A stretch of 64,000 nucleotides of DNA from NCBI GenBank assembly GCA_028877205.1, contig JAPPHY010000002.1:13994-77993 (forward strand), in the 5' to 3' direction. Shown here piece by piece: positions 5,915 through 56,366 of the stretch. A program made the translations under genes and the position numbers. Source of the stretch: Chloroflexota bacterium. Lineage in GTDB: Bacteria > Chloroflexota > Dehalococcoidia > Lucifugimonadales > UBA2985. Each line of letters starts with the position of its first letter. Position 1 is the stretch's first letter. The notes under the pieces were generated by a model. It saw only the letters and a list, made by a program, of their open reading frames with translations. It was not told the origin of the DNA and searched no databases.

Positions 5915-8933
<3,019 letters not shown>

Positions 8934-8973: not shown

Positions 8974-9048
8974 CGCGGGGTGGAGCAGTGGCAGCTCGTC
9001 GGGCTCATAACCCGAAGGTCGTTGGTTCAAATCCAACCCCCGCTACCA
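8974..9048 (+). tRNA. initiator tRNA-fMet (CAT), CCA encoded
   Basis: CGCGGGGTGGAGCAG...GGGCTCATAACCCGAAGGTCGTTGGTTCAAATCCAACCCCCGCTACCA. It is near-identical in the acceptor and anticodon stems to E. coli tRNA-fMet, including the three G-C pairs in the anticodon stem. Confidence 0.95.
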
Positions 9049-15888: not shown

Positions 15889-16803
15889 ATGCTGGAGTTC
15901 ATCGGTCTCATATGGGACCAGCTCATCCTGGGCCCGATGGTGAACTGCCTGGTGTTCCTCTATGCCATCATGTTCGACAACTTCGGCCTCAGCATCCTGC
16001 TCTTCACCGTGGTGATAAGGCTGATCACGATGCCCCTGACGCTCAAGCAGATCAGGATGACGCGGCAGATGACCATGCTGCAGCCACAGATGCGGGAGTT
16101 GCAGCAGAGGTACAAGGACGACAGGCAGCGGCTGTCGCAGGAGACGATGAGGCTGTACAGGGAGCAGGGCGTCAATCCCCTGGGATGCCTTGGGCCGATG
16201 GTCATCCAGATGCCCGTCTGGATTGGGCTGTACCAGGCGATAATCCAGACCCTTCCCACGCAGCCGGAGCGGCTGATCGGCCTCTCGCAGAAGCTGTACT
16301 CCTGGCTGCCCATGGTCAACGAGGCGGTGCCGCTGAGCAGCGGCTTCCTCTGGATGGACCTGGCGCTTGGCCCGGGCGAGCAGAGCGACTTCCTTCTGCC
16401 TGCGTTGGTGGGGCTGTCAATGTGGGCGGTGCAGAAGATGTCGACTGTGCCTTCGGCGGATCCGCGGCAGGCACAGACCAACACGATGATGCTGTGGATG
16501 ATGCCGCTGATGCTCACCTTCTTCTCGTTCCAGCTTCCCAGCGGCCTGGCCCTCTACTGGGTGGCGTCCAACCTGATACAGATGGGTATCCAGTACTTTA
16601 TAACCGGATGGGGCAACCTTCTGCCGTCGAGAACAGAGACGGCGCCCGCGCAGGTCGCGCCCGCCCAGCCGGTCAAGGAGATTGCGCAAGATGGAGACAC
16701 TGGAGACAACGGGAAGAACCGTCGAGGAGGCAATCGAAATCGCTCTGGAGCAGCTAGGCGCAGAGCGAGATCAGGTAGAAATAGACGTAATCAGTCAAGG
16801 TAA
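15889..16803 (+). CDS. yidC: membrane protein insertase YidC (short form) with basic C-terminal tail
   Basis: NFGLSILLFTVVIRLITMPLTLKQ and multi-TM Oxa1 pattern. Arg-rich tail NRRGGNRNRSGAARRRARSGRNRRNQSR. Confidence 0.9.
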   Translation: MLEFIGLIWDQLILGPMVNCLVFLYAIMFDNFGLSILLFTVVIRLITMPLTLKQIRMTRQMTMLQPQMRELQQRYKDDRQRLSQETMRLYREQGVNPLGCLGPMVIQMPVWIGLYQAIIQTLPTQPERLIGLSQKLYSWLPMVNEAVPLSSGFLWMDLALGPGEQSDFLLPALVGLSMWAVQKMSTVPSADPRQAQTNTMMLWMMPLMLTFFSFQLPSGLALYWVASNLIQMGIQYFITGWGNLLPSRTETAPAQVAPAQPVKEIAQDGDTGDNGKNRRGGNRNRSGAARRRARSGRNRRNQSR

Positions 16804-51310: not shown

Positions 51311-52468
51311 ATGAGAACACCCCTGCCCATAGCCACAATACTAGCGGCCCTGCTGCTGTTCGCGGCCGCGTGCGACTCTCCGGACGAGGCGGCCAGCCCG
51401 ACGGATACGCCTGTGCCGACCGTCACACCTCTGCCGACGTCCACGCCGGCACCCACACTCACGCCTGAGCCGACGCCCACGGAGGAGAAGGCCGACTTCA
51501 GGCCCGGCCCTGAGGACATCATAACCCTGCTCCCATACGACGCGATCAAGGCAGTCCTGGATCCGCGCCTGGTCGACGTGGAGTGGGCGAACCAGCAGAT
51601 GACGGACCTGGAGCAGGTCATCGGCGTGTCGATCGGCGGCGAGCATCGCGCCTATCCGATATACATGCTCAGCAGCCGCGAGATCGTGAACGACGTCGTG
51701 GGAGGTGTACCGATCGCGGTCACGTGGTGACCGCTCTGCTACTCGAGCATAGTTTATGCTCGCGAGATTGGAGACCAGGTCCACACCTTCGGCGTGTCCG
51801 GCAAGCTGGTGATGAACGCGCTGGTCATGTACGACCACCAGACCGACACGCTTTGGAGCCACTTCACGGGAGACGCCATATACGGGGAGCTGGAGGGCAC
51901 CAAGCTGGAGATCGTGCCTGCCCTGCACACCACCTGGCTGCGATGGAAGGAGCTTCACCCGGACACTCTGGTGCTGGACAAGCGGGGCTTCTACCGCTCC
52001 GACATCTACGAGTACTACTACGAGACCGGCGGAGCGGGCGTCATAGGCGAGGCCAACATCGACGACCGGTTGTACCTAAAGGAGTTCGTGGTTGGGCTGG
52101 TGCTCGACGGGCAGGCCAAGGCCTATCCCTTCGGCGACCTCAACGGTACGCCTGTTGTGAACGACACCTTCGCCGGCCGAGAGCTGGTGGTGACGTTCGA
52201 GACTCGCGCAGCCACTGGCAGCGTCTTCAGCCGCGTGGTGGACAGGGAGACGCTGACATTCCAGGAGACCGGTGAGGAGGTGCCCGGCGGCCCGACCATG
52301 ACCGACGACCAGACCGGCAGCGTCTGGCTCATGCCCACCGGCGAGGCAATCGAGGGCGAGCTGGAGGGTACTACACTGGAGCGTATTCCCTCCAACTACT
52401 CGTTCTGGTTCTCCTGGAATGACTACTACCCCAACACCCTGCTATACCCGGAGGACGGGCCCAGCTGA
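51311..52468 (+). CDS. DUF3179-like lipoprotein, candidate selenoprotein (in-frame UGA at 51728..51730)
   Basis: ORFs 51311..51730 and 51794..52468 share one frame and are separated only by that TGA. Read-through gives ...GGVPIAVTW-U-PLCYSSIVYAREIGDQVHTFGVSGKLVMNALVMYDHQTDTLWSHF. Lipobox LLFAAAC. Confidence 0.6.
51744..51762 (+). promoter_or_regulatory. candidate bacterial SECIS hairpin
   Basis: CGAGCATA-GTT-TATGCTCG, an 8-bp stem starting 13 nt after the UGA, with a G-first apical loop. The selD hairpin has the same GUU loop. Confidence 0.5.
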
Positions 52469-53030: not shown

Positions 53031-53477
53031 ATGAACATCAGAAATCGGCTCAGATACGGCGAGACGATCATCTCGGATCATCACCCGTACTATGCCACCT
53101 CTCAGCGCATCATCCTCTACCATGAAGTGGAGGGGCGCGAGGAGATGTGGGAGTTGCCGTACGCCCGCGTGACTTCCGTGGAGGTGGTGAAGCTGCCGAG
53201 GCACAAGATGATGGTGGCGGGAACGCTGCTGATCGTGGGCGGCGCCATCATGTCGTCGTATGGATTCATCACGTCGATTCCCTCGATCCTGGCGGGCATA
53301 GGCGCGCTCGTGTACGGCGGCATAGGGCGGGAGGCCTACTACCAGATCAACGCCAACGGCATGTCCAAGGAAGAGGCTGCCAAGTGGCGGCTGGTCTACT
53401 GGGGCAGCGGGAGCTTCGTGCGCACCGTTCAGACCGTCCTTGGAGAGCGCAACGGCAGCTACCGAGACGAGTTCTAG
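53031..53477 (+). CDS. membrane protein with bacterial PH-like N-terminal segment, hypothetical
   Basis: Internal ATG of ORF 52917..53477. Two adjacent hydrophobic helices (MVAGTLLIVGGAIM, IPSILAGIGALVYGG). Confidence 0.45.
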   Translation: MNIRNRLRYGETIISDHHPYYATSQRIILYHEVEGREEMWELPYARVTSVEVVKLPRHKMMVAGTLLIVGGAIMSSYGFITSIPSILAGIGALVYGGIGREAYYQINANGMSKEEAAKWRLVYWGSGSFVRTVQTVLGERNGSYRDEF

Positions 53478-54226
53478 CGCCCGGAGCCTTCAGCGAACTC
53501 CAACGCCATCTGAGCCACTTCCTCCGGCGACCTGCGGCCCGACGACGCCAGCTCATCGAGCATGGCTCTGCGGCGCTCCACATCCGCCTCCGCGCCTCGA
53601 AGGAACACCGGCGTGTCCACCGCCTCGAACCGGTCGTCCGACTCCACCCACTTGAACAGCTGCCGCCCCTCCGGCCTGCCGTCCCGCACGCGGTCGATCT
53701 CGTGTATTTCCGACACGCGCCGCCAGAAGGTCTCGTCGTCCTCGCCGAACCGGAGGATGTACAGCATCAGATCGATGCGCGAGGCGTCCTCGTCTGCGAC
53801 ACCACACCCTTCGCAGATGTCGTTGAACGTTTCCTCCAGGCCCGGCGCGTGCATTGACGTGACCAGGGAGTAGCCCACCGTCATGGCGTCGAACACGCGC
53901 TGCACCGGTTCGCCCCAGATGTAGCCGGGGACCGGTCCCCGGCTGAACTCCGGCACCACCAGGTAGCCGCCCGTCGCAGCCTCCTTGAGCCTGCCAACCT
54001 CCGTCTGGTCGGCGCCCAGCCGGTGCACCGGCACGTCCGGCGGCAGCAGCGACAGGACGGCGTTGAAGGTCGTGGTCTTGCCAGCCAGCCGCGGGATCGC
54101 GACCACCACGATCGACAACCTAGCGTCGACGGCAGCCCACAGGACGGCGGCCATGCGCGACGACATGGTGCCGTTGCGAATCAGGTCTACTATGGTGACG
54201 CTGTCAGGCGTGCTCAATGCAGTCAC
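53474..54226 (-). CDS. degenerate T2SS/T4SS-type (VirB11/CpaF-like) P-loop ATPase, 250 aa
   Basis: DLIRNGTMSSRMAAVLWAAVDARLSIVVVAIPRLAGKTTTFNAVLSLLP parallels the VirB11/CpaF segment preceding and including Walker A. The His-box-like TSMHA is present. GTG start 28 nt after the selD stop. Confidence 0.55.
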   Translation of the reverse strand: MTALSTPDSVTIVDLIRNGTMSSRMAAVLWAAVDARLSIVVVAIPRLAGKTTTFNAVLSLLPPDVPVHRLGADQTEVGRLKEAATGGYLVVPEFSRGPVPGYIWGEPVQRVFDAMTVGYSLVTSMHAPGLEETFNDICEGCGVADEDASRIDLMLYILRFGEDDETFWRRVSEIHEIDRVRDGRPEGRQLFKWVESDDRFEAVDTPVFLRGAEADVERRRAMLDELASSGRRSPEEVAQMALEFAEGSGR

Positions 54227-54253: not shown

Positions 54254-55300
54254 CTACGGGAGCACCTCGATCAAGTGCTGCCCGCCTTCGGCCATCTCAC
54301 CGATGACGGCCGACCCGCTCACGCCCCTGCGTGACAGCGCGGCGGTCAGCTCGGATAGCTTGGCGGGTGGAACGGACATGAGCAGACCGCCGGATGTCTG
54401 CGCGTCGCACAGGACGAGCTTCATCTCATCGCTCACCGACCCGTCCCACGCCGCAACGATGTCGACGGAGCTCAGGTTGCGACGGGTGCCGCCCGGCGCG
54501 ACGCCGCTGCAAACGAGATCCCACGTCCCATCGATCAGCGGCACGTCTGACGCTCGAACTCGCGCGGTCACGCCGGAGGCCTCGGCCATAGACTTCAGGT
54601 GGCCCAGCAGTCCGAACCCGGTGACGTCCGTGCAGGCGTTGACCCCAACCTCCGTCATCGCCTCCGAGGCGTCGCGGTTGAGGGCGCTCATCACCTCGAT
54701 GGCGCTCTCCAATACGGCATCGTCCACGACTCCCTGCTTGCCGGCCGTGGTGATGATGCCCGTGCCCAACGGCTTGGTGAGCAGCAGCAGGTCGCCCGCG
54801 CAGGCGGTGTCGATGCCGACGTGTCCGCCCGGCTGCACGGTACCTGTAACCGCCATTCCGTACTTGGGCTCTTTGTCGTCCAGCGTGTGTCCGCCCACGA
54901 TGAGCACGCCCGCCTCGGCGGCCTTGGCCGCGCCTCCCTTCAGAATCTCGCCGAGAATGTCCATCGGCAGGTCTATAGGGAAGCACACCAGGTTCATGGC
55001 CAGGAGCGGCTTGCCTCCCATAGCGTACACGTCGCTGAAGGCATTGGCCGCGGCGATGGCCCCGAAGTGCCACGGGTCGTCCACGATTGGTGGAAAGATG
55101 TCGACGGTCTGCACGATAGCGAGGTCGTCCCGCAGGCGGTAGACTGCCGCGTCGTCGCGCGTGCCTATCCCCACCAGCAGGTTGGGGTCATCGAAGGTCG
55201 GCAGCCGGCGCAGAACCTGCGCCAGGTCCTCTGGACTGAACTTGGATGCTCAGCCGGCGCAACTGGCCAGGCTGGTCAGCCGAATCTGCTCACCCTGCAA
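54254..55300 (-). CDS. selD: selenide, water dikinase (selenophosphate synthetase), Sec-containing (UGA at 55250..55252)
   Basis: The ORF-track piece 54254..55174 carries GIGTRDDAAVY, DIFPPIVDDP and GGHT motifs. The same frame upstream reads (TTG)QGEQIRLTSLASCAG-U-ASKFSPEDLAQVLRRLPTFDDPNLLV. The UGA is codon 17, as is Cys17 of E. coli SelD. GGAGAAAGG lies 9 nt before the TTG. Confidence 0.85.
55205..55225 (-). promoter_or_regulatory. SECIS hairpin of selD
   Basis: CUGGCGCAG-GUU-CUGCGCCGG, a 9-bp stem (one G.U pair) starting 24 nt after the UGA. Confidence 0.6.
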
Positions 55301-55363
55301 GTGACTTGTCCTTTCTCCGATAGTCCCAGGCGGGCACTCAACATGATAGCACACGAGGGGCGT

Positions 55364-56275
55364 CTAGACGTACCTCGCGCCGCTGTCCGGCAGAATGGTC
55401 ACCACCACGCGCCCTGAGCCCAGCCTGCTGGCCACCCGCAGCGCGGCCGCCACGTTCGCGCCGGAGGAGACGCCCACCAGCAGTCCCTCCTCGCTTGCCA
55501 GCCGCGCCGATACCGCCATTGCCTCCACGTCACTGACGGAAATGACCTCGTCCACCAGCGACATGTCGAGCAGCGGCGGCAGGAAGTCCGGCCCAAGGCC
55601 CGGAATTCCGTGGTCGCCCGGCTCGCCGCCGCTCAGGACCGGCGACGCCGCCGGCTCAACGGCCACCACGAGCGTATCGGGCCGTTGCTCCTTGAGCGCA
55701 CCGCCCACGCCCGTGATCGTTCCTCCGGTGCCCACACCTGCGACGAAGGCATCCACGCTGCCGCCCGTGTCCCCAAGGATCTCACTCGCGGTGGTCTCCC
55801 GATGGGCCCTGGGGTTGGCCGGATTCGTGAACTGGTCGATCCACACGTACGATGAGTCCTCCTGCACCAGCTTCTCCACGGCGTTGATGGCCCCGGCCAT
55901 GCCGTCAAGGGGGGACGTGGTCAGGATCTCGGCGCCCAGGTGGATCAGCAGCCGTCTCCGCTCCGGGGGCACTCCTTCCGGCATGGCGATGACGACCCGG
56001 TAGCCTCTGGCGGCGGCGACCATTGCAAGGGATATGCCGGAGTTGCCGCCGGTTGCCTCGATAAGCGTCTGGCCTGGGCGCAGCCTGCCCGACTCCTCCG
56101 CGTCCAGCACCATCGCCAGTGCGATGCGGTCCTTGACGCTGCCGGTGGGGTTGCAGCACTCCAGCTTGCAGAGCACGGCGGCGGAGCCCTCTTCCGGCAG
56201 TCGCTCAAGCGCCACCATCGGGGTGTTGCCTATGGCCTCCAGGACGCTGCGGCGCATGCGTGCGACGGCCTCCAC
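55364..56275 (-). CDS. cysK: cysteine synthase family PLP enzyme (CysK/CysM-like)
   Basis: NPTGSVKDR (PLP lysine), GTGGTITG, SSGAN motifs. 303 aa. Its stop is 63 nt upstream of the selD start. Confidence 0.85.
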   Translation of the reverse strand: MEAVARMRRSVLEAIGNTPMVALERLPEEGSAAVLCKLECCNPTGSVKDRIALAMVLDAEESGRLRPGQTLIEATGGNSGISLAMVAAARGYRVVIAMPEGVPPERRRLLIHLGAEILTTSPLDGMAGAINAVEKLVQEDSSYVWIDQFTNPANPRAHRETTASEILGDTGGSVDAFVAGVGTGGTITGVGGALKEQRPDTLVVAVEPAASPVLSGGEPGDHGIPGLGPDFLPPLLDMSLVDEVISVSDVEAMAVSARLASEEGLLVGVSSGANVAAALRVASRLGSGRVVVTILPDSGARYV

Positions 56276-56366
56276 TCTCTGGATGTCTCATTTTGTCCCC
56301 GCAGGGTGCGCTAGTCAAGCAGGGCGATGTGTGACGGCGGCGAAGCGGCCGATTCGCGCCCACGAC

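Follow-up and report, generated by a model that had tools for sequence, protein, structure and literature searches.

The selD locus and its product

The window, by which we mean the whole stretch of 64,000 nucleotides that was analysed, belongs to the genome of an uncultured Dehalococcoidia MAG (2.0 Mb in 22 contigs, 64% G+C), the relatives of which are Dehalococcoidia and SAR202 MAGs. On the minus strand it carries a gene for selenophosphate synthetase, selD, preceded by cysK, with the following features:

55364..56275, minus strand: cysK (cysteine synthase A; TIGR01139, 381 bits), 63 nt 5' of selD
54254..55300, minus strand: full selD coding sequence, 348 codons plus TAG stop, with the predicted selenocysteine (Sec) at codon 17
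55318..55310, minus strand: GGAGAAAGG, read directly from the sequence, a putative Shine-Dalgarno-like site 9 nt 5' of the selD TTG
55300..55298, minus strand: TTG start codon of selD; the same codon is ATG (in most), TTG or GTG in relatives
55250..55261, minus strand: region of SelD residues 14-19, with Cys14 and Sec17
55252..55250, minus strand: predicted UGA Sec codon, selD codon 17, opposite the catalytic Cys17 of E. coli SelD
55174..55172, minus strand: false GTG start of ORF callers, giving a 306-aa product without the catalytic loop
54256..54254, minus strand: TAG stop of selD, as read from the sequence

The list of open reading frames contains only the segment 54254..55174 (306 aa), which starts 42 codons 3' of the selD TTG. 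Upstream of it, the same minus-strand frame of 348 codons is interrupted by a single in-frame TGA, and when this codon is read through, the N-terminal peptide becomes (M)QGEQIRLTSLASCAG-U-ASKFSPEDLAQVL. We place the start of selD at the TTG at 55300 and not at the GTG at 55354, because the start codon of the relatives lies at exactly the position of this TTG; in these relatives the peptide QGEQIRLT follows immediately after the ATG, GTG or TTG. The GTG at 55354 lies in the selD frame, 18 codons 5' of the TTG, and can be mistaken for the selD start once the TGA is read through. The TAG stop codon of cysK (55366..55364) shares the selD reading frame as well.

The read-through SelD scored 372 bits against TIGR00476 (cut-off 125) and 353.3 bits against NF002098 (cut-off 299), covering profile positions 4-346 of 347, and contains the Pfam domains AIRS (PF00586, residues 49-155) and AIRS_C (PF02769, residues 168-341). 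Its best match among solved structures is E. coli SelD (3u0o, E=1.3e-78); the two proteins are collinear between residues 4 and 346 and share the AIRS and AIRS_C pair. In this alignment SCAG-U-ASK lies opposite HGAG-C-GCK, placing U17 on Cys17 and K20 on Lys20; whereas E. coli has Cys17 and Cys19, the protein described here has Sec17 and Ser19. Judged by these profile and structure matches, the predicted read-through product is a full-length selenide, water dikinase (selenophosphate synthetase, SelD), and the 306-aa call lacks the catalytic loop because the loop with U17 and K20 is situated within the 42 removed codons. The original prediction had held that the ORF track was truncated and that the frame runs on through the TGA to the TTG, that the 42 upstream codons are related to SelD N-termini and that Sec falls opposite Cys17 of E. 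coli; its coordinates and peptide proved exact, and the profile and structure alignments bear out the other two statements. No second selD was found in the genome, the other matches to the AIRS family being ThiL- or PurL-like (E ~1e-8 to 1e-12).

No terminator-like site was found between cysK and selD and the sole promoter-like site for the pair (56318..56290) lies 5' of cysK, so that co-transcription of both genes is plausible. A deep functional link between cysK and selD was rejected, since their adjacency (11/80 loci) is limited to the genus and family. Just 3' of selD lies a 250-aa ORF (53474..54226, minus strand) that matches no Pfam family and of which residues 10-68 show a weak NCBIfam likeness (E ~1e-12) to a segment of FlaI/TadA-type secretion ATPases; this ORF is found next to selD in the genus and family, and its GTG start abuts GGAGGA, so that translation may really begin at a TTG situated 9 nt beyond it. 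Elsewhere in the window, a complete 23S rRNA gene (5915..8933, plus strand) is followed 40 nt later by a tRNA-Met(CAU) gene (8974..9048, plus strand). No 5S or 16S rRNA was detected by Rfam in the 64-kb window, and the rRNA genes appear unlinked here.

Hairpins downstream of the UGA codon

In the best-studied bacterial SECIS, that of E. coli fdhF, a stem-loop is located in the coding sequence after the UGA. Behind the UGA of selD, two abutting hairpins can be drawn:

55225..55205, minus strand: hairpin A, candidate SECIS, CUGGCGCAG-GUU-CUGCGCCGG, 9 bp with a GUU triloop
55236..55226, minus strand: hairpin C, GUCC-AGA-GGAC, 4 bp, abutting hairpin A, with a possible auxiliary or spacer role

Hairpin A corresponds to the 9-bp GUU hairpin that had been predicted 24 nt after the UGA. 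Its stem indeed starts at that distance and its loop 33 nt after the UGA, one of its 9 pairs is a U-G, and within a 96-nt context it has a pair probability of ~0.9. The published bSECIS model (PMC13188914, Fig. 2) describes an apical loop of 3-9 nt that starts with GGN or GUN, an upper stem of 4-16 bp, a distance between UGA and loop of 16-37 nt and an MFE <= -7.5 kcal/mol. With its 3-nt loop starting with GU, 9 bp, 33 nt and -14.8 kcal/mol, hairpin A passes this model on every point; a SECIS prediction had been put forward beforehand as a check. The SECIS families of Rfam gave no match in the window at the gathering threshold, and a search of 55150..55330 at E<=10 returned only noise, which is no surprise, bacterial SECIS elements in coding regions being specific to gene and lineage.

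Constraint on the nucleotide sequence was assessed on a codon alignment of 93 distinct orthologues, of which the 49 with at least 60% identity were used for synonymous diversity; columns of the selD alignment encoding the same amino acid served as controls. Against a gene-wide mean synonymous diversity of 0.50 (49 sequences), codons 20-33 contain all seven lowest of the 259 seven-codon windows. The individual codons behave as follows:

Ser22: AGT in 46/47 Ser sequences, the least diverse of 7 Ser columns, TCC or AGC being preferred in the remaining ones
Asp25: GAC throughout, with less diversity than any of the other 14 - 1 Asp columns
Leu26 and Leu30: diversity 0.12 and 0.04, below all others among 26 Leu columns, of which the next has 0.44
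Ala27: GCG in 44/44 Ala sequences, against GCC as modal codon in 20/22 Ala columns
Val29, in the loop of hairpin A: diversity 0.69, as free as other Val columns
Arg31: third base C or T, either of which pairs with the opposite G

Moreover, codon 27 is UCG in three sequences, and codon 31 is CGG or CGA there, by which the pair is restored. This synonymous pattern fits what hairpin A predicts: stem sites are frozen and the third base of the loop is free. In alignment A1, positions 34-42 pair with positions 46-54 around a GUN loop. Across phyla (88 distinct sequences), 7/9 pairs of hairpin A are altered on both sides, and its covariation score was reached by 0/500 shuffles. Hairpin A is under selection at the RNA level.

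Two other pairings bear on the question of which element serves as SECIS. Hairpin B (AGGACCUG-GCG-CAGGUUCU) overlaps hairpin A and has its loop 27 nt after the UGA. In the multi-phylum alignment (88 sequences) it is paired for 81% and covaries, with 23 cells altered on both sides, and some related Chloroflexota form hairpin B only, with GGU, GUG or GGC loops; in these, B is evidently the putative element in use. Hairpin C alone is weak (-2.5 kcal/mol, pair probability 0.16). Its codons are nevertheless synonymously frozen at Ser22 (AGT) and Asp25 (GAC), the third base of Pro23, which lies in its loop, is free, and the alignment fits the pattern GUCC-NGA-GGAC. That Sec is inserted with another SECIS than hairpin A alone, either the overlapping hairpin B or a composite of C and A, has to be taken into account, although we judge it unlikely. 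For the host clade, the evidence from third codon positions speaks against hairpin B: it needs C or U as third base of Val29, whereas 18/49 sequences of this clade have G or A, and it does not account for the frozen GCG of Ala27, the third base of Leu30 or codon 32. It is also weaker than hairpin A (-8.7 versus -14.8 kcal/mol), with a pair probability of 0.07 in the 96-nt context, and the GUU triloop of A recurs in two other candidate Sec genes of the genome (see below). Hairpin A is therefore preferred over hairpin B as the most likely SelB-binding SECIS of selD, a choice that rests on sequence comparison.

A further hairpin, GGCUGAGC/GUUCAGUC, includes the UGA itself and has a high probability in in silico folding. 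It was rejected as SECIS, as its covariation does not exceed that of shuffled alignments and as it does not account for the preference of AGU over AGC at Ser22; in addition, a ribosome decoding the UGA would be expected to melt this pairing.

Conservation and decoding of the in-frame TGA

In 61 genomes drawn from the same genus, family and order, SelD has exactly one in-frame TGA wherever it is present; in 30/30 loci of these relatives this is codon 17. This holds over a larger distance too: in a set of 110 homologous loci, including Nitrospirota, Bacillota, Gemmatimonadota, Binatia and others, 109 cover codon 17, and in these nearest homologues from several phyla the codon is TGA in 108/109 and TGC in 1/109. 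SelD was found in 220/301 sampled Chloroflexota genomes, and 145/150 Chloroflexota SelD among the matches listed have one TGA, so that on codon content Sec-SelD is the predicted norm across this phylum. The UGA of selD is under purifying selection.

The machinery for selenocysteine insertion, named beforehand as a test of the UGA reading (selA, selB and selC), was recovered in full above curated cut-offs. The genome contains selA (552 bits), a full-length selB (345 bits, profile positions 2-580 of 581) and one tRNA-Sec (70 bits in Rfam), which ARAGORN classifies as SeC; its anticodon is UCA, its acceptor stem has 8 bp and its variable arm is long. Together with selD, the gene set by which membership among the selenoproteins was judged is present in this genome. 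In the relatives, selA accompanies selD: 7/7 SelD-less relatives have no selA above the cut-off and 3/3 SelD-positive controls do have selA. No selU was found in the genome, and selenouridine is therefore not a second client of selenophosphate.

Three other explanations of the TGA were weighed, each of which we hold to be highly improbable. According to the first, the TGA is a true stop, functional SelD (306 aa) starts at the GTG at 55174 and the 16 codons ahead of the TGA form a separate or untranslated piece. This agrees with the output of the ORF caller and with the public records, as NCBI, ENA and Logan all hold exactly the truncated 306-aa product for this selD. Public starts in relatives are inconsistent, however, lying at codons 29 (the GUG in the loop of the putative SECIS), 43 and 63, and cluster mates appear in public gene calls as products of 320 aa (from the GUG at codon 29) and 286 aa. 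Against a true stop also speak the alignment of the 42 removed codons, including the loop with Cys17 and Lys20, with both the SelD profiles and E. coli SelD, and the conservation of start codon, frame and TGA in more than 100 orthologues.

The second, equally implausible, takes the TGA as a nonsense mutation or assembly error and selD as a pseudogene. One-off stops do occur in this assembly: prfA (RF1; contig C16:81615..82676, minus strand, outside the window) is interrupted by an in-frame TAG where AGTGG-[D/E]-EAALFA is conserved, its frame being intact otherwise. The possibility that this TAG is a second recoding event was rejected, as it occurs in 0/29 relatives with a match, and most likely it is an assembly error or a strain polymorphism. 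The TGA of selD differs from this one-off TAG in being conserved, since it is found in every SelD-bearing relative of the genus, family and order and in other phyla, and it interrupts the only selD of a genome that keeps selA, selB and selC.

A genome-wide reassignment of TGA to Trp (code 4) or Gly (code 25), which would equally leave the selD frame open, finds hardly any credit with us, because the genome encodes RF2 (475 bits, above the cut-off), TGA terminates 688/1537 open frames of at least 300 codons (45%), no UCA anticodon other than that of tRNA-Sec occurs among the genome's tRNAs, and Cys-type homologues have Cys at the aligned residue; in view of RF2, the TGA stops and this sole UCA tRNA, the UGA of selD is a locally recoded and not a reassigned codon.

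With a probability of roughly 0.95, we consider 55300..54254 (minus strand) to be one intact SelD gene with a UGA-encoded Sec17 in its Gly-rich loop, decoded by standard bacterial Sec insertion. Following the established bacterial pathway, SelB-GTP carrying Sec-tRNA(Sec) would bind a stem-loop in the coding region 3' of the UGA. The element bound would most likely be the 9-bp GUU hairpin A, perhaps aided by the abutting 4-bp hairpin C, and the apical G-U loop of A would form the contact with SelB. Competing with RF2, SelB would then bring Sec to the A site of the ribosome, and selenium would thereby be incorporated at codon 17. The resulting SelD presumably makes selenophosphate for SelA, and, as the sole SelD is of the Sec type, the selenophosphate supply of the host would need a product of its own Sec pathway.

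Known systems, further candidates and differences between lineages

Sec-SelD proteins occur in, for example, Haemophilus influenzae, Aquifex aeolicus, Geobacter and Clostridium. The arrangement described here is thus already known, long-known even and very common, and the finding is correct but ordinary. The original prediction was right in calling Sec-containing SelD known, yet 'several bacteria' was an understatement, as FdhA and SelD are the two selenoprotein families found most widely in bacteria (PMC1794560, PMC13188914), SelD taking second place. Compared to known bacterial Sec-SelD, the protein belongs to the same family above equivalog cut-offs and shows every feature that can be verified on sequence; nothing essential is different, and the host genome has no selU partner gene. 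In the single search made for FdhA, the FdhA-like gene of the genome had no in-frame TGA; Sec-decoders without FdhA have been reported to have Sec-SelD (PMC1794560).

The putative SECIS of selD differs in some respects from that of E. coli fdhF. The distance of 24 nt between UGA and stem is longer than in fdhF, where the stem of the minimal SECIS presumably starts 11 nt after the UGA, while the distance between UGA and loop stays within the published 16-37 nt. Hairpin A has no evident bulged U, unlike the fdhF SECIS, and in place of the GGUC of fdhF it has a GUN triloop, which would widen to GGUUC on opening of the closing pair. The apical sequence of the fdhF element, GCAGGUCUGC, is similar to GCAGGUUCUGC in selD, G-U lying in the loop.

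Long read-through frames across the genome were scanned for a TGA followed at 16-37 nt by a hairpin with a GUN triloop and 7 bp or more. This strict scan yielded a raw count of 13 matches, of which 10 look like wrong-frame noise and 3 lie in recognisable selenoprotein contexts, all with a GUU loop: selD, a DUF3179 gene and an AhpC/TSA gene. Only this strict scan was relied on; a genome-wide scan for CxxU/UxxC motifs was rejected as far too permissive, giving mostly wrong-frame noise. The two genes other than selD are:

51311..52468, plus strand: DUF3179 lipoprotein-like gene, ~2 kb from selD, with TGA at 51728..51730
51744..51762, plus strand: 8-bp hairpin of the DUF3179 gene, CGAGCAUA-GUU-UAUGCUCG, loop 21 nt after the UGA
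contig C15:15940..16647, plus strand, outside the window: AhpC/TSA-family gene, with TGA at 16309, in FYRGSF-U-GVC

In the DUF3179 protein, PF11376 (residues 77-376) spans U140, which is part of a W-U-P-L-C motif, making this gene a second, candidate selenoprotein gene near selD. In the AhpC/TSA gene, PF00578 (residues 50-173) spans the TGA, which is followed by the 7-bp hairpin CCAGCUG-GUU-CAGCUGG; this gene probably encodes a further selenoprotein and is split by gene callers.

The main value of the selD finding lies in annotation: the gene is complete and presumably yields an active enzyme, but all public calls found for this selD and its close relatives (306, 320 or 286 aa) are truncated and do not include the catalytic loop. 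Metabolic reconstructions of the abundant uncultured Dehalococcoidia would in this way carry a crippled SelD and miss the selenoproteome. In-frame TGAs elsewhere in the host genome deserve inspection, for which a GUU triloop on a stem of 7 bp or longer, placed 16-37 nt behind the TGA, is offered as a local search motif. To the biology of Sec-SelD itself, nothing new is added.

Whether the SECIS of selD has moved during evolution was considered on the 60 nt after the SelD UGA in loci L046-L125. In Nitrospirota the hairpin occupies a third register, GGUCCAAA-GGU-UUUGGACC, whose loop follows the UGA at ~21 nt. The corresponding distance is ~18 nt for UAAGUCC-GGC-GGACUUA in some Bacillota and Marinimicrobia, ~27-28 nt for hairpin B, with a GGU or GUG loop, in some Chloroflexota, and 33 nt in the host clade. 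It is tempting, though we hold it with more doubt than conviction, to propose that the SECIS has shifted among at least three registers (~+21 in Nitrospirota, ~+27 in some Chloroflexota and +33 here), all within one conserved stretch of 20 codons, that a two-hairpin composite is in place here and that the possible partner cysteine of Sec17 has moved from position 19 to 14. If true, the shift of register and Cys would represent turnover of RNA structure under coding constraint and rewiring of the SelD active site.

As to this cysteine, the host clade differs from Nitrospirota and other homologues in having Cys14 (C-A-G-U) and Ser19 where these have U-x-C19. Among 93 Sec-SelD orthologues, the Cys near Sec17 is at position 14 in 56 (C-A-G-U, Dehalococcoidia-type) and at position 19 in 31 (U-A-C, Nitrospirota and others). 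Cys14 could be a relocated partner cysteine, or the split could simply follow phylogeny, in which case it may have little meaning; exactly one of the two cysteines is present in 87/93 orthologues, neither in 6/93 and both in 0/93.
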